Of a stretch of DNA of 64,000 bases, positions 37,656-51,064 are shown one piece after another. This stretch comes from Acidimicrobiia bacterium (GTDB taxonomy: Bacteria; Actinomycetota; Acidimicrobiia; UBA2766). The stretch covers positions 29,776 through 93,775 of the forward strand of contig JADZDR010000008.1 of the NCBI GenBank assembly GCA_020850945.1, written 5' to 3'. The position numbers were made by a program, and so were the translations under genes. The number at the start of each line of letters is the position of its first letter. The stretch's first letter is position 1. The notes under the pieces are model-generated. The model saw only the letters and a program-made list of their open reading frames with translations. It did not search any database and was not told the DNA's origin.

Positions 37656-39902
37656 TCAGCACGTCGAGAACCCGCACGCGAGGCACTTTCCGCAACCCTC
37701 CTCGGTCGCGAACGCGGCATCTCCGCAGTCCGGGCAGACCTCGAACGGCTCAGCCGGGGACGGCCGCAGTGTCGCGCCCTCACGTGGCTCGCCGTAGGTG
37801 CGATCGAGCAGCTTCGCGAGGGCGTCGGCCACCGAGAGTACGCGCGCCTCACCAAATCCCACGGCGGACCGGCCGCCTATGCCCGAGAGCTGTTCGACGA
37901 CGAGTTCCACGGGCACGCCTGTCCGCAGCAGGAGGGATACGAGACGCCCGATCGCCTCGGACATCGCAGTGATATCGGAGCCTGCCTTTCCGAACACGAG
38001 AAAGACCTCGAAGGGCTTCGCGTCGAGCTCGGTGACGAAGACGTTCATGATGCCGAGTGGGGTCTGGACACGGAAGCGGCGGGCGGCGAGCCCACCCGGG
38101 ACCTCGGGCACGGCGCGAGGCAGGACCTCGCTGCCGCGCACGTCCGGCGCGGACGTGGTGCGGCGCGCCGCCGTCGGGGACCCGGCGACGAGAACCTGGG
38201 CGGGCTTGGAGCCGTCCCGGAAGACAGTGACGCCCTTGCAGCCGAGCCGATCGGCGAGGTCGAAGACCTCGATGACCTCCTCGACGCCGGCGTCGTGGGG
38301 CAGGTTGACGGTCTTTGACACGGCGTTGTCGGTGTGCACCTGGAACGCGGCCTGCATGCGCACGTGCCAGACCGGGTTGATCTCGTGCGCGGTGGCGGCG
38401 ACAGCTCGTACGTGGGCGGGTATCTCGTCGATGTCGCCGGCATGACCGGATCGCACGGCTGCCTCGATCAGGTCCTCGGGGACTGCCTCACGTCGGGCGA
38501 GCTCGAGGAAGGAGGGGTTGACCTCACGCAGGAGGTTGCCGTCGAGTACGTGCCGTTCGAAGCCGAGGGCGAAGACCGGCTCGATCCCGGACGAGCAGCC
38601 GGCGATGACCGAGATCGTGCCCGTGGGGGCGATCGTCGTGCGTGTCGCGTTGCGCAGGCGCCGGCCATCGGCGGCGTAGACGGATCTCGACCAGTTCGGG
38701 AAGACGCCCCGCTCGGCGGCGAGACCCTCCGACGCCCGGTCGGCCTCGGTCGACACGAAGGACATGAGCGTATCGGCGAGCGCGAGCGCGTCGTCGCTGC
38801 CGTAGGGGATGCACAGAGCGATGAGGAGGTCCGCCCAGCCCATGACACCGAGGCCGATCTTGCGGTTCCCGTCGCGGGTCATGGCGGCGATCTCGGCGAG
38901 CGGCCACACGCTGCGCTCGACGACGTCGTCGAGGAACCGCACCGCCGTGTGGACGACAGAGCGGAGACGGTCCCAGTCGATGCCCGAGCCGGCACGGAAG
39001 CGGGAAACGTCGACGGACCCGAGGGTGCAGGCCTCGAAGGCGAGGAGAGGCTGCTCCCCGCACGGGTTCGTGGCCTCGATCGTGCCGAGATCGGGTGTCG
39101 GGTTCGTACGCATGTCGTTCATGCGGTCCATGAACACGAGACCGGGATCGCCGCAGCGCCAGGCCGCGTCGGCGATGCGCGCCATGACCTGTCTCGCCCC
39201 GAGCCGGCCGACCTCCTCACCGGTACGTGGGTTCACGAGCGGGTAGGTGCCGTCGGCATGCAGGGCATCCATGAAGCCGGCGTGCACGGAGACCGAGATG
39301 TTGAAGTTCGCGAGGCGGTCCGGTTCGAGCTTGGCATCGATGAACTCGAGGACGTCGGGGTGGTCGACTCTGAGGACGGCCATGTTCGCTCCGCGCCGGT
39401 TCCCGCCCTGGCGCACATGCTCGGTGGCCGCGTCGTAGACCTCCATGAAGGAGACGGGACCGGACGCCACGCCGCGCGTCGACGCGACGGTGTCGTCGCG
39501 AGGACGCAGGGCCGAGAAGGAGAACCCCGTGCCACCACCCGACTGGTGGACGATCGCCGCGTTCTTCAAGGTCTCGAAGATCCCCTCCATGCTGTCGGGT
39601 ACCGGCAACACGAAGCAGGCGGCGAGCTGTTCGAGGGAGCGCCCCGCGTTCATGAGGGTGGGCGAGTTGGGCAGGAAGTCGAGGTCACACATGAGGTCGA
39701 GGAAGCGCTGTTCCCAGTCGGCCACGCGTTCGGCCGCGGTCGCCGCGTCTCCCCATGTCGCCTCGGCCCCTGCCACGTCACGGGCGACGCGCGCGAACAT
39801 CTCCCCCGCGGTCTCGATGACCTCTCCCTGCGCGTCCCGCCCGAGGTACCTGTGTTCGAGGACGACACGGGCCTGCTCGGTGAGTTGCGGTTCTCGCTGC
39901 AT
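37656..39902 (-). CDS. nrdJ: adenosylcobalamin-dependent (class II) ribonucleoside-diphosphate reductase
   Basis: 748 aa with a class II RNR core (NPCGEQ, active-site Cys region) and a C-terminal Zn-ribbon CPDCG...CGKCLACG. Confidence 0.9.
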   Translation of the reverse strand: MQREPQLTEQARVVLEHRYLGRDAQGEVIETAGEMFARVARDVAGAEATWGDAATAAERVADWEQRFLDLMCDLDFLPNSPTLMNAGRSLEQLAACFVLPVPDSMEGIFETLKNAAIVHQSGGGTGFSFSALRPRDDTVASTRGVASGPVSFMEVYDAATEHVRQGGNRRGANMAVLRVDHPDVLEFIDAKLEPDRLANFNISVSVHAGFMDALHADGTYPLVNPRTGEEVGRLGARQVMARIADAAWRCGDPGLVFMDRMNDMRTNPTPDLGTIEATNPCGEQPLLAFEACTLGSVDVSRFRAGSGIDWDRLRSVVHTAVRFLDDVVERSVWPLAEIAAMTRDGNRKIGLGVMGWADLLIALCIPYGSDDALALADTLMSFVSTEADRASEGLAAERGVFPNWSRSVYAADGRRLRNATRTTIAPTGTISVIAGCSSGIEPVFALGFERHVLDGNLLREVNPSFLELARREAVPEDLIEAAVRSGHAGDIDEIPAHVRAVAATAHEINPVWHVRMQAAFQVHTDNAVSKTVNLPHDAGVEEVIEVFDLADRLGCKGVTVFRDGSKPAQVLVAGSPTAARRTTSAPDVRGSEVLPRAVPEVPGGLAARRFRVQTPLGIMNVFVTELDAKPFEVFLVFGKAGSDITAMSEAIGRLVSLLLRTGVPVELVVEQLSGIGGRSAVGFGEARVLSVADALAKLLDRTYGEPREGATLRPSPAEPFEVCPDCGDAAFATEEGCGKCLACGFSTC

Positions 39903-40287: not shown

Positions 40288-40302
40288 TCGAACGTGTGTT
40301 CG
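40288..40302. promoter_or_regulatory. LexA (Cheo-type) SOS box TCGAACGTGTGTTCG
   Basis: Matches the actinobacterial / Gram-positive SOS consensus TCGAAC-N4-GTTCGA. 64 nt upstream of the small membrane-protein gene. Confidence 0.7.
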
Positions 40303-40319
40303 TGTACCATCACAATATG

Positions 40320-40335
40320 TCGAACAGAGGTTCGA
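40320..40335. promoter_or_regulatory. LexA SOS box TCGAACAGAGGTTCGA (perfect half-sites)
   Basis: Both half-sites match the consensus exactly. It is the central box of three in the lexA divergent region. Confidence 0.75.
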
Positions 40336-40423: not shown

Positions 40424-41065
40424 GTGGCCCAAGACGAGCTGACTCCCAGGCAGAGGGCGGTGCTCGAGTTCATCAGCGAGCAGATGCAGGAACGCGGGTT
40501 CCCCCCTTCGGTCCGTGAGATCGGTGAGGCCGTGGGCCTCACGTCATCCTCGAGCGTGCACGCGCAGCTCGCCACGCTCCAACGTCTCGGCTTCCTGAAG
40601 CGGGACCCCACGAAGCCGCGGGCGATCGAAGTCCACTTCGACCCCGAGTCGGGCGGGGTGGCCGAACGCCGGCCGCCGCGTTTCGTACCGCTCGTCGGCG
40701 AGATCGCGGCCGGGCAACCCATCCTTGCCGCCGAGTCCGTCGAGGAGGCCTATCCCCTGCCTGCCGACTGGGTGGGTGAGAGCGGCACCCTGTTCATGCT
40801 CGCGGTGCGGGGCGACTCGATGATCGGGGCGGGCATCCTCGACGGCGACTACGTGGTCGTACGCCAGCAGCAGGATGCCCGCAACGGCGAGATCGTGGCG
40901 GCCATGGTCGAGGGACCCGACGGCGCTGAGGCGACCGTGAAGCGCTTCACGCGACGTGGGCGCACGGTCGTCCTCGTACCCGAGAACCCCGACATGGACG
41001 ACATGGTGTTCGACGCCGGTGTCGAGATCCTCGGTCGCGTCGTGGCCGTCATGCGCCGCGTCTGA
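40424..41065 (+). CDS. lexA: LexA SOS repressor
   Basis: 213 aa. N-terminal winged HTH, Ala-Gly cleavage site (VGEIAAGQP) and S24 peptidase Ser/Lys dyad (GDSM ... KRF). Confidence 0.9.
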   Translation: MAQDELTPRQRAVLEFISEQMQERGFPPSVREIGEAVGLTSSSSVHAQLATLQRLGFLKRDPTKPRAIEVHFDPESGGVAERRPPRFVPLVGEIAAGQPILAAESVEEAYPLPADWVGESGTLFMLAVRGDSMIGAGILDGDYVVVRQQQDARNGEIVAAMVEGPDGAEATVKRFTRRGRTVVLVPENPDMDDMVFDAGVEILGRVVAVMRRV

Positions 41066-46580: not shown

Positions 46581-47009
46581 TCAGGCGTCGTCGCGGCTCC
46601 CGGCGGGTGCGCGAAACAGGGATGTCACCTCGGATGCCGTGTCTGCGAGCGGGGCATCGTAGGTGGACGCGGCGGCTTCCGCTGTCGACGACATCGAATC
46701 GGGATGGCCCGTGGACACTGAGATGTCGAGCTCCACACGCGTCGGCGCGCGGTGCTCGACGGTGAGGCGGATCGCCGTGCGGGTCTGTCCGTCGATCACG
46801 ACCTCGTTGAACTCGGGAATGCACACGATGTCGATCTCGTCGTCGACGAGATACGTGCGGGCGATCGCGATCGCCTTCACACCCTGGTTGAGGGCGCCCG
46901 CCCCTATCACCTGCATGTCACATGAGCTGCGTTCACGCAGGATGCCTGCGAGGGCCCCGGCGACGCTGTGGGGCACCGACCGAGACGAGACCTTGAGACT
47001 GTGAGTCAT
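46581..47009 (-). CDS. SpoVS-family (stage V sporulation protein S-like) protein with a C-terminal extension of about 55 aa
   Basis: From Met MTHSLKVSSRSVPHSVAGALAGILRERSSCDMQVIGAGALNQGVKAIAIARTYL...CIPEFNEVVIDGQTRTAIRLTVEHR, which is colinear with Bacillus SpoVS (86 aa) over its whole length, followed by an unrelated Ala/Ser/Thr-rich tail. Confidence 0.65.
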   Translation of the reverse strand: MTHSLKVSSRSVPHSVAGALAGILRERSSCDMQVIGAGALNQGVKAIAIARTYLVDDEIDIVCIPEFNEVVIDGQTRTAIRLTVEHRAPTRVELDISVSTGHPDSMSSTAEAAASTYDAPLADTASEVTSLFRAPAGSRDDA

Positions 47010-47289
47010 GCCAACCCCCACGTCCAGCGCGGGAGAGCAGCCGGCGGCATCGTAGCCGAGTCTGGCTCGTCGAGCGGCTGCATGGCCCTCCTGCCCTCGC
47101 TGCGCACCGAACCCCCCGACTCCTGCTTCTACTAACGCAAGAAGCCGAGCCCGAATACGACACTAGCCGTATTCCCTATCGGGTGTGCGCCCTGTGAACA
47201 GGCTTGTCTACAGAAGAAAGGTGGTTTGATAGGTTTTATCCCGATTTGCCGACCTCGGCTGACTCGAATAATCCCTGAAAGGGGATCAC

Positions 47290-50200
47290 TCACTCCGGGT
47301 CCGCGGCCGGTTCCGCCGGCACACCGGCAACCTCGAGGTCCGCCAACAGGTCGGCGTCACCCGCCTCGCTCGTGTCGGCGGTGTCGACGGGGTCGGGACT
47401 GAAGACCTCGCGCACTCGCTCCGTGAGCTCGAGAGCGATGTCGGGATTCTCGGCAAGGAAGGCCTTGGCGTTCTCACGGCCCTGCCCGAGCTGTTCGCCC
47501 TCGTAGGTGAACCAGGCGCCGCTCTTCTGGACGAGGCCGGCGTCGACCGCCACGTCGAGAAGTGAACCCTCGCGGCTGATCCCCTTGCCGTACATGATGT
47601 CGAACTCCGCCTGCCTGAATGGCGCCGAGCAGTTTGCCACGACACAGCCCTCGGCCACGAAGGTGTGATGCTCGTCGACTTCGATATCGAAAACCTCACA
47701 TCTCTCGGAGGGAAGCACAGCTTCGATCCGTGCATAATGCAGGTCCTCGTCGAGCACGGCCCGGAGAAACTCGCTGTCGAGCGCATCGGCCAGCCGTTCG
47801 ATCCGATCTCTTCGCAGACGGCGCGCGCCGAGCACGAGCCTCAGGCTGTCACCCGCCCCCGCACCCGCTCCCAAGAGCCGGCCGACGAATGACGGCGTCA
47901 ACCCCCGCCCTCGCAGGTACGCCAAGACAGGTTCGGTCTGGGACGCGGGAAGGTAGTTCGTCTGGGAACCACGGTGCTTGCGCAACTCGGGATCCGCCAG
48001 GGACTCGACGAGCTTCGTCCCCCGCGGGCCCCACATCGGGAGGGCCTCGGCGAATCGTGTGACGTTGTCGATGCCACTCAAACGCACTTCCCAGCATGGC
48101 CGCCTCGCTTGTACCACCCGTCCCTTGATGAGGCTCGGCCGCTGACTCGTCGGGTCGTACACCCTCACCGATGTCCAAATGTCGAACCGCAGCAGGAGCC
48201 AATGAACCTGGTGGGCGAGCTGCTCTGATGTCGTCACGAATCCGCACCGGATCCCCCCGGTTTGCTCCCGACTCACGTACCCGTCCGTCTCCCAGAGGCC
48301 GAAGAGCAGGTTGCCGAGCACCTCCGCCGACACGTCGGAGGCGAAGAAGTCCGGTGGTATCCGCTTCTCGGGTGCCAGATGTCCCCAGATTCCCGCCCAA
48401 CGCACCAGCGCGAGGAGCTCGCTCTCCCTTCCAGAGCGGAAGGAGAAGCTCGTCTCGATCCCACGCCGTCTGGCCGAACAGCCGAGTGACTCGGCGATCT
48501 CGATGGCGTCCTGCTGCAACGACTCGGCCACGTTGATGAATGTCACCGGCGTCTTGCCACCCACATACCCGTCCCCGATCAGGTAGCCGAGGAGCCGGGC
48601 GTGGGCAGGGGGGACAGGCTCGGTATCACCGAACTCCCCCAAGCTGCGGGGCCGGGCAATTCGGTCACCTGCTCGCAAATCGCCGGCCGGACACCAACCC
48701 TTGTCCGTGAGGATCTTGTGGTCCGGTGTCACACGCAGGACCGTGCCATCGCGAAGTCGCAAACCGATGACGTCACGCACCCCTTGGGCGAAGCGGTTGA
48801 CGATGCGCCGCACATGCAGCTTCCCGGCCTTGTCGGCGGCAACCACGGCCTCACCCTGCTCACCTGTGACGATGTCTTCGATTCGGTGCGTCAGGCCTGT
48901 GGTCGGATCGAAGACGCGGGTACCGGCCGCGACGCACTTGTTCTTGGCGACCTTCACCCGCACCCGGTTGCCGACCGCCTCGGTGCCGACCTTGATCGAG
49001 TCGATGCGGCGCACGTCGAGACGCACCGACGAATAGAACTTGAGGGCTCGCCCACCCGATGTCGTCTCGGGTGAGTTGTGCACCATGACGCCGTCCACGA
49101 AGTAGTTGTGGGTCCCCTCGACCTCCAGATCGAAGCGATGCGTGTGCTTCCCGTTGGGCGGACCGACCCGGATGTCTGTTATCGGCATCGGCACCAGAAC
49201 CCGGCGCATCGGCGTGAAGATGGGCTGAACCGCGAACCGCCCTCGGAACTTCGGGAGCAGCTTGTAGTCCATCGACGGATGGACGAAGGGTGCGATCAGA
49301 GCGTGGAACGCCTCGGTCGCAGCCTTCGGGAACTGCAGGACCGCCTTGCGCGACTCGCCTCGGTAAACCAGCTTCGCCTGGATTCCCCAGGTGTCCGCGA
49401 GCAAGTCGACGAGGCGCCGGCGTGTGGCGGGGTCCATGGCTTCGATGCAGATCTCGCATCTGCCGCTCCCCCCCGCCGTTCGCGCCTGTTTCCCTTCGGT
49501 ACGGAGCTGGAAGGTGCCGTCATCCATGTACCAGAGGGCCAAGGCCAACGGCGTGAGCGCCTTCAGGTACTCGTCGCTGAACACCTTCTTGCCGCCGACG
49601 TACACGGACCTGCGAAGTTCCGCCAGCTCAGGAAGCGGACGCATGTCGAAGAAGATCGCTGCCTCTGCGTTGGTCGAGCGAGAAGTACCGATGTTCGCGA
49701 AGAGGGATGCCTTCCATTCCGCATATTCGGTCTGCTTCTTGCCATGACCCCACCTGAAGCGGGCTCCATGCCCACTGCGTGTGGGGGACAGAGCCCCGTC
49801 ACCCATCAGGGACCCGAGGATGACCTCCCGCTGGAAATCGGAGAGATGCTCTGGCACCTCTTGAAGCACCCGATCGCCAACCGAGAGCGCCTGTGCCTCC
49901 TTCCAGCCTCTCGGGGTGCGAATCCTGTGATTCGCCGTGCAGGAGAACTGGGCTCGACCGTTGCCGCCACCTCTCGCAACGCTGAAGCGGTAGAACTCGT
50001 CGGTCCGACCGTTGTCGAACCAGCCCACCACCCGCTTGGGTACCACGGCATCTTTGTCCGCGTCGTATGAGAGCACCTCGACCGGGAGTTTCTGGTTGAC
50101 GATCTTGCCGATCTTCTCCTGCGTTCCGTCCGCCAAAGTCACTCGCGTGCTGTAGTCGAAGCAGCCGAAGAGCACTCCCACCTTCTCACGGAGCTGGTTG

Positions 50201-50871
50201 ATGAAGATCATGATCGTGTTCGTCTTGGAGATCGTGCCCGAGAGCTTGCGCAGCGCCTGACTCATGAGTCGTGCCTGCAAACCGACGTGCGTGTCGCCCA
50301 TCTCGCCGTCGAGCTCGGCCTTGGGCACGAGGGCGGCGACCGAGTCGATCACGATCACGTCGAGGGCGCCCGATCGGATCAGCATGTCGGCGATCTCGAG
50401 CGCCTGCTCCCCCGTGTCGGGCTGGGAGATGTAGAGCTCGTCGATGTCGACGCCGAGGTTGCGGGAGTAGACGGGGTCGAGGGCGTGCTCGGCGTCGATG
50501 AACGCGCAGACTCCCCCGTTGCGCTGCGCCTCGGCGATCACGTGCAGGGCGAGCGACGTCTTCCCGCTGCTCTCGGGCCCGTACACCTCGACGATGCGTC
50601 CCCGCGGCAGGCCGCCGATGCCCAACGCGAGGTCGAGCGAGAGGGCACCGGTCGACACGACACCCTGTTCCTGCTTGAACGTGTCGTCCCCGAGCTTCAT
50701 GAGGGCACCCTTGCCGAACTGGCGCTCGATCTGGCTCACCGCCATGCCGATCGCCTTCTCGCGGGTGCCGTTCGAGTCCGGTCCGCCCCCTCGCCCCGAG
50801 ATCGGGGTCACCTTCGCCACGTTCCCCTTCGCGCCGCCCTTCGTGTTGCCCTTCGACGTGATCTGCGCCAT
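47290..50871 (-). CDS. recA: recombinase RecA precursor containing two inteins (mature RecA about 395 aa)
   Basis: 1193 codons. The exteins are 236 aa (with Walker A GPESSGKT), 46 aa and 113 aa, and are colinear with RecA. Two in-frame inserts of 363 and 435 aa carry intein and LAGLIDADG signatures. The N-terminal start (ATG 50871) is uncertain by about 20-30 codons. Confidence 0.85.
47632..48936 (-). mobile_element. RecA intein 2 (435 aa) with LAGLIDADG homing endonuclease domain, inserted KVAKNK|C...CVVAN|CSAPFRQ
   Basis: N-terminal Cys, block [18 protein letters not shown]-like [10 protein letters not shown] and [12 protein letters not shown]-terminal Asn followed by Cys. The penultimate residue is Ala rather than His. 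Confidence 0.8.
49075..50163 (-). mobile_element. RecA intein 1 (363 aa) with LAGLIDADG homing endonuclease domain, inserted KVGVLFG|C...VMVHN|SPETTSGG
   Basis: N-terminal Cys, block [18 protein letters not shown]-like [11 protein letters not shown] and [11 protein letters not shown]-terminal His-Asn followed by Ser. Confidence 0.8.
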
Positions 50872-50913
50872 GGTCCGTCCCTCTCTGCCTCGTCCTCTGC
50901 CTCCGGGTCTGTC

Positions 50914-50952
50914 CCGACTCGCCTTCCCGACTCGCCTTCTCGACTCGCCTCG
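50914..50952. repeat. 3 x 13-bp tandem direct repeat (CCGACTCGCCTTC x2, TCGACTCGCCTCG) in the recA leader
   Basis: Read directly. Lies 43-81 nt upstream of the annotated recA ATG. Confidence 0.8.
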
Positions 50953-51049
50953 GAGACCGTACCGGCGGGTTGTGACACAAAATCTCTCGGCACGGAATGT
51001 CACACCTGGAATTCCAGCCATGATATTCCGGACGTGCCGGGAGACTCTA

Positions 51050-51064
51050 TCGAACGCATGTTCG
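51050..51064. promoter_or_regulatory. LexA SOS box TCGAACGCATGTTCG upstream of recA
   Basis: Close match to the consensus TCGAAC-N4-GTTCGA, about 180 nt upstream of the recA start on the recA side of the intergenic region. Confidence 0.7.

Follow-up and report, generated by a model that had tools for sequence, protein, structure and literature searches.

What does a recA reading frame of 1193 codons encode, and how could it have come to be built as it is? The question is raised by a 64,000-nt stretch of a metagenome-assembled genome (MAG) of an Acidimicrobiia bacterium (GCA_020850945.1, contig JADZDR010000008.1, positions 29,776 to 93,775; the whole of this stretch is referred to as the window), in which the recA open reading frame (ORF) occupies 47290–50871 on the minus strand (ATG at 50871; stop codon 47290–47292). 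The encoded protein is identical to NCBI MCC7075813.1 (‘MAG: recombinase RecA [Acidimicrobiia bacterium]’), an entry that says only ‘recombinase RecA’, though two-thirds of the gene is intein. We consider it very likely that two independent class 1 inteins, both made up of a HINT splicing domain and a nested LAGLIDADG homing endonuclease, interrupt this recA in frame, and that they would splice, and spread through populations, in the manner proposed below. The anatomy of the sequence, its homologies, the fold, the conserved catalytic residues and the presence or absence of the inteins in populations were all observed directly and carry this reading.

The precursor consists of five pieces, all on the minus strand (slashes mark splice junctions or insertion points throughout). 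An N-extein of 236 aa (50164–50871), carrying an uninterrupted Walker A motif (GPESSGKT) and ending in REKVGVLFG, is followed by a class 1 intein of 363 aa at the RecA-b site (49075–50163; CFDYSTRV...GVMVHN, junctions G/C...HN/S; hereafter intein b), a middle extein of 46 aa (48937–49074; SPETTSGG...RVKVAKNK), a class 1 intein of 435 aa at the RecA-a site (47632–48936; ending EGCVVAN, junctions K/C...AN/C; hereafter intein a) and a C-extein of 113 aa that contains the RecA C-terminal domain (47293–47631). Translation reproduced, for all five pieces, the frame, coordinates and junctions given by an earlier sequence-only reading of this DNA, and excision of both inserts leaves the colinear, uninterrupted RecA of 395 aa (236+46+113 aa) with GPESSGKT that it had described. 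Once the inteins are removed, the two insertion sites lie 138 bp apart in recA, with intein-free junction sequences CTCTTCGGC/TCACCCGAG at site b and AAGAACAAG/TGCTCGGCG at site a; empty alleles of relatives read ...MFG/SPETT... and ...KNK/(C or V)xxPF... at the corresponding points.

Profile searches with exteins and inteins gave matches to both components that lie far outside what chance would produce. A Pfam scan of the precursor matched RecA (E 7e-126), with the match split by the inserts and residues 39–237 covering profile positions 1–198, and RecA_C (2e-23) in the C-extein, so that both the core with Walker A and the C-terminal domain of a bacterial RecA are present. Among NCBIfam models, TIGR02012 (recA) scored 511 bits against a cutoff of 325, and NF007072 (‘intein-containing recombinase RecA’) scored 1079 bits against a curated cutoff of 1024; intein_Nterm and intein_Cterm each match twice in the precursor, and Pfam Intein_splicing matches too. 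The ATG at 50871 is a plausible start, since the conserved RecA N-terminal helix follows it and a purine-rich stretch precedes it. No second recA and no extra copy of either intein was found in the 64-kb window.

Intein a, by its insertion point and its homology to PI-MtuI, is assigned to the RecA-a (M. tuberculosis-type) allele. The sequence-only reading had put the two inserts at the two RecA intein sites known from mycobacteria, and this central interpretation is supported. Its residues 1–435 align with positions 252–691 of the 790-position model NF007072 (E 1e-155), which models the M. tuberculosis-type precursor and in which positions 252–691 are those of the M. tuberculosis intein. Residues 1–110 and 378–435 align with the PI-MtuI splicing domain (2imz, E 3e-50), and the endonuclease region (residues ~111–377; 47806–48606, minus strand) falls between these two segments, which correspond to the PI-MtuI mini-intein. 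LAGLIDADG_3 (Pfam, 2e-14) matches residues 208–297; the LAGLIDADG pair reads LIGDGYV and LWETDGYV, and block B is TPDH. With PI-MtuI (440 aa; 2imz/2in0) intein a shares the insertion point (...KNK/C...N/C(S or A)xPF...), the class 1 residues C1, T70, H73 and F-block Asp and His, and a nested LAGLIDADG domain. It differs in length (435 aa), in having Ala in place of the penultimate His439, in an extra His beside the F-block His and a unique Cys431, and in its setting, an Acidimicrobiia MAG with a second intein in the same gene.

In intein b the nested endonuclease domain (residues 112–286; 49306–49830, minus strand) matches LAGLIDADG_2 (PF03161, 1e-36) across all 168 profile positions, with paired motifs LMGDGAL and WYMDDGT, while the splicing domain matches intein_Nterm (1e-9) and intein_Cterm (1e-5) and has TANH as block B. 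The sequence link of intein b to solved structures is weaker than that of intein a. An AlphaFold model of intein b (10-sequence alignment; mean predicted local distance difference test score, pLDDT, 90) matches the intein-endonucleases TliVMA, PI-PfuI and PI-SceI, superimposes on the Mtu RecA splicing domain with a root-mean-square deviation of 1.5 Å over 102 residues, and reaches a template modelling (TM) score of ~0.7 on target with the free LAGLIDADG enzymes I-SceI and I-WcaI. Identity is 52–60% to nine deliberately diverse site-b inteins and at most ~72% to the closest relatives. The M. leprae RecA intein PI-MleI, a 365-aa intein with a homing endonuclease (PMC8861304, Table 1), agrees with intein b in having an endonuclease domain and almost in length (363 aa for intein b), which is its putative counterpart.

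Conservation of the residues expected to act in splicing and cleavage was assessed after both inteins had been excised from the 120 best full-length homologues and aligned. Invariant among site-a inteins (n=120) are Lys-1, C1, T70, H73, D417, H424, N435 and Cys+1, where D417 corresponds to Mtu D422 and the F-block His, H424, to Mtu H429; among site-b inteins (n=119) Gly-1, C1, T76, H79, the F-block Asp, H362, N363 and Ser+1 are invariant. Both inteins therefore have class 1 nucleophiles (C1/Ser+1 in intein b, C1/Cys+1 in intein a), the block B Thr-x-x-His and the block F Asp, and intein b also ends in the His-Asn of block G. In the endonuclease domains, E216 of intein a and D214 of intein b do not vary, and conservation reaches at least 90% at D122 and D218 of intein a and at D122 and D215 of intein b. 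Pfam matches, paired motifs and these acidic residues thus bear out the earlier statement that each insert carries a LAGLIDADG endonuclease domain; the fold check covered intein b.

How common is such a gene? The 120 best-scoring clusters at 90% identity were ranked in a way that favours double-intein proteins by construction, so the tally is a count and not a frequency: 110 have inteins at both sites occupied in the window, nine have both plus a third intein in the P-loop, and one is a fragment. The third site reads GPESSGK/C...HN/TTVALH and holds an intein of 359–442 aa, giving precursors of 1494–1642 aa when both other sites are also filled (P0036, P0047, P0074, P0094, P0100, P0105, P0106, P0109 and P0117). 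Sources of proteins with inteins at both a and b (a+b) include Acidimicrobiales, Nocardioidaceae, Streptosporangiaceae, Nitriliruptorales and Egibacteraceae. Two named entries, from Haloechinothrix alba (RefSeq WP_089301308.1, 1152 aa) and Mycobacterium sp. (WP_343601315.1, 1157 aa), share with the window precursor the two sites, the junction residues and the two intein families; they differ in having the canonical His-Asn at site a, and overall identity is ~58–61%. In a library of representatives at 50% identity, a+b proteins are reduced to a handful of clusters whose representatives seem to be fragments of 926–927 aa, and many diverse clusters with intein b only and several with P-loop and b inteins are found.

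To estimate a frequency, an alignment restricted to site-b inteins was used to scan GTDB genomes, one for each species. At least 568 stretches of these species-representative genomes encode a relative of the site-b intein; among the best 80 of them, of which 79 allowed scoring, five (6%; L006, L022, L036, L074 and L080) have an intein at site a and 74 have that site empty, and three loci (L026, L027 and L029) have P-loop and b inteins without a. The a+b arrangement is thus a minority state, seen in ~6% of close site-b carriers and recurring across the phylum. The sequence-only reading had called double occupancy rare, which holds for its share of close relatives (5/79 genomes) and fails as an absolute statement, given at least 119 clusters at 90% identity. 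At the 74 empty a sites, the +1 residue is Cys in 34 and Val in 34; the Cys may have been left behind by a former intein, or it may be needed before one can invade. One of the five filled loci, L080 (QHBU01000209.1, 4.2 kb), has an a+b recA close to actinobacterial ones and is binned to Candidatus Aeolococcus gillhamiae (Dormibacterota); this contig is probably mis-binned, horizontal transfer being less likely.

Across these data sets all combinations of the three sites except P-loop plus a were seen, with a-only and intein-free alleles resting on single, partly fragmentary examples. Actinobacterial RecA can accordingly be described as a three-site intein host (P-loop, b and a) with segregating occupancy. 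No paper describing a RecA with both window sites filled was found in a limited literature search, which may have missed one. Both inteins belong to known families, their pairing is already public in more than 100 sequences and the window protein itself has been deposited; current views of inteins or RecA are not changed.

Variation within a narrow lineage is evident in one 90%-identity cluster (P0090, members P0516–P0529), represented by a Streptosporangiaceae MAG, in which several allele types occur together. Alleles with a+b (1196 aa) are accompanied by b-only alleles (759 aa) that are 97% identical over shared residues and from which intein a is precisely absent (RIKVVKNK/CAPPFKAA), by an allele with a, b and P-loop inteins (1625 aa), and by a fragment from which intein b is precisely absent (MFG/SPETT). 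Such precise presence or absence among near-identical alleles is the product of homing or of precise loss.

From these observations the following sequence of events is proposed. Transcription of the window recA, which LexA probably controls, and translation would give the 1193-aa precursor; Cys1 of each intein would attack the preceding peptide bond, the N-extein would pass to the +1 nucleophile (Ser after the upstream intein and Cys after the downstream intein), and cyclisation of the terminal Asn would release the intein, so that completion of both events would leave the 395-aa RecA. The freed inteins, if their endonucleases are still active, could cut intein-free recA alleles at their own targets 138 bp apart, and the cut alleles would then receive the inteins by copying during recombinational repair. 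The double state would arise most often by invasion of the site-a intein into an allele that already has the much commoner site-b intein. The most fitting view of double occupancy is that it belongs to a polymorphism of intein gain and loss that is widespread in Actinomycetota.

Genes with more than one intein are well documented, and several inteins at separate conserved sites of a single ATPase gene have been studied experimentally in M. smegmatis DnaB (DnaBi1 and DnaBi2; PMC6195587) and in Haloferax mediterranei MCM (MCM-a and MCM-d; PMC10643990). In haloarchaeal MCM, both of the neighbouring inteins keep their endonucleases and home well singly, they co-home poorly into an empty allele, and double forms arise mostly from single-intein alleles (PMC10643990); by analogy, the abundance of b-only recA alleles would fit the same route. 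The host proteins are different, however, and the intein alleles unrelated, and DnaBi1, a class 3 mini-intein, has no endonuclease. With its presence/absence polymorphism among near-identical alleles, actinobacterial recA is a natural bacterial system, comparable to archaeal MCM, for the interaction in homing of neighbouring inteins 138 bp apart.

Some points weigh against the proposal of two splicing, mobile inteins, as regards both splicing and mobility. Assignment of intein b to the RecA intein site of M. leprae, which reportedly lies between MFG or LFG and SPETT (Davis et al. 1994; Saves et al. 2000), is tentative. Splicing and DNA cleavage by the window protein are themselves predictions. 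Intein a keeps its terminal Asn and ends in Ala434-Asn, without the penultimate His, a frequent though not a defining class 1 residue, which promotes cyclisation of Asn in many inteins and is dispensable in some (PMC4031507), and its Cys431, four residues before the splice junction, occurs in none of the other homologues in the set of 120; slow or conditional splicing of intein a is therefore conceivable. Carried further, replacement of His by Ala, together with the unique Cys431, could mean that the downstream intein is impaired in splicing and yields little or no mature RecA, so that the gene would in effect be a pseudogene or its RecA would be activated only under certain conditions. We regard such impairment as unlikely. 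The penultimate residue of site-a inteins (n=120) is His in 87, Ser in 23, Gln in six, Ala in three and Arg in one, and the 33 without His (27%), concentrated among the closest, Acidimicrobiia-like relatives, all keep C1, T70, H73, D417, H424, N435 and Cys+1, which argues that splicing is still under selection. Some 5% of functional inteins differ at this position, and reversion to His improves some inteins and damages others (PMC4031507). The 1193-codon frame is moreover intact, an SOS box is present and this is the single recA in the window. Because 33 of 120 homologues lack the His and ~5% of functional inteins differ there, the penultimate Ala, judged from the alignment, is a lineage trait and no ground for doubting splicing; it had been read correctly from the sequence alone, where its description as a departure from the usual did not hold. 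A by-product of this comparison is a clade of site-a inteins without penultimate His. In 21 of these 33, as against seven of the 87 with His, a further His (His423) adjoins the invariant F-block His, a count in which shared ancestry is uncontrolled, and the window intein carries this HH pair (His423–His424). The non-His inteins might conceivably form a compensated catalytic variant in which the extra His partly replaces the penultimate one and Asn cyclisation is slower or condition-dependent, in which case the DNA-damage response would be gated after translation by a RecA maturation in two steps. We think this very improbable; if it were true, the second intein, the SOS promoter and slow cyclisation would together amount to a gate, something beyond mere parasitism.

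As for mobility, distances among 116 homologues are correlated (Mantel r 0.63 for extein and intein a, 0.63 for extein and intein b, 0.73 for intein a and intein b; p 0.001 each), so that much of the history is vertical; prolonged vertical co-inheritance accounts for this correlation at least as well as frequent homing does, and perhaps better, and it follows that the endonucleases may be inactive in the window lineage. That lineage is isolated: the nearest full-length relative of the protein is only ~70% identical, too distant to date the gain of either intein. Both inteins might accordingly splice but be fixed passengers with inactive endonucleases, inherited vertically with recA and immobile in this lineage, which we think possible though on balance doubtful. 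Besides the correlated distances, the similar divergence of inteins and exteins from their nearest relatives (67–71% and ~74% identity, respectively) is consistent with passengers, as is the absence of a close relative among viral contigs, which yielded only distant relatives of intein b (best full-length match 36% identical) and no sign of a phage vector. Against it, conservation of the acidic residues and glycines in the LAGLIDADG motifs is 90–100% (n=119–120), which is not expected of decaying endonucleases, and the precise presence/absence polymorphism described above occurs among alleles of another lineage that are 97% identical. Third-position GC content is also lower in the inteins (0.81 in intein b, Fisher p 6e-5; 0.78 in intein a, p 2e-7) than in the exteins (0.91), which hints at a foreign origin of, or different selection on, the inteins. 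That the double occupancy itself is an assembly artefact, a chimera of b-only and a-only alleles from co-occurring strains, is hardly credible: the source is a MAG, and single- and double-intein alleles do coexist in similar populations, but many projects have yielded the a+b layout, which recurs in no fewer than 119 independent clusters, including contigs of 1–3.7 Mb and RefSeq WP_089301308.1, and both splice junctions of the window gene, like its reading frame, are exact. We therefore retain the reading of two class 1 inteins in a recA that would be matured by splicing.

The setting of recA looks like that of a working SOS-regulated gene, given a LexA box upstream, lexA nearby and intact neighbouring genes. 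The LexA (SOS) box CGAACATGCGTTCG (51051–51064) lies ~180 nt upstream of the recA start codon, and two further exact boxes (40289–40302 and 40321–40334) lie directly upstream of a lexA-like ORF (40424–41065; identified by reading the sequence, MAQDELTPRQRAVLEFI...); the window thus holds three exact copies of the pattern CGAAC-N4-GTTCG, where 0.2 would be expected, and the three boxes mark its SOS regulon. The lexA-like ORF is divergent from a gene for a 748-aa class II ribonucleotide-reductase-like protein (37656–39902). Genes flanking recA are intact, with cinA and a thpR-like gene (LigT/2′,5′-RNA-ligase family) upstream and a spoVS-like gene and miaB downstream.

In many actinobacteria recX lies directly downstream of recA; none was seen in the immediate recA neighbourhood here, and the gene directly downstream (46581–47021) is of the SpoVS family (Pfam, 2e-32). 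A scan for promoters and terminators found nothing meaningful. Between the LexA box and the recA start, a 13-nt unit (TCCCGACTCGCCT, plus strand) is repeated three times in tandem (50912–50950; Tandem Repeats Finder score 71, 96% matches), and a short inverted repeat, GTGTGACA ... TGTGTCACA (minus-strand reading; ~50975–51005), was spotted by eye in this leader, likewise downstream of the box.

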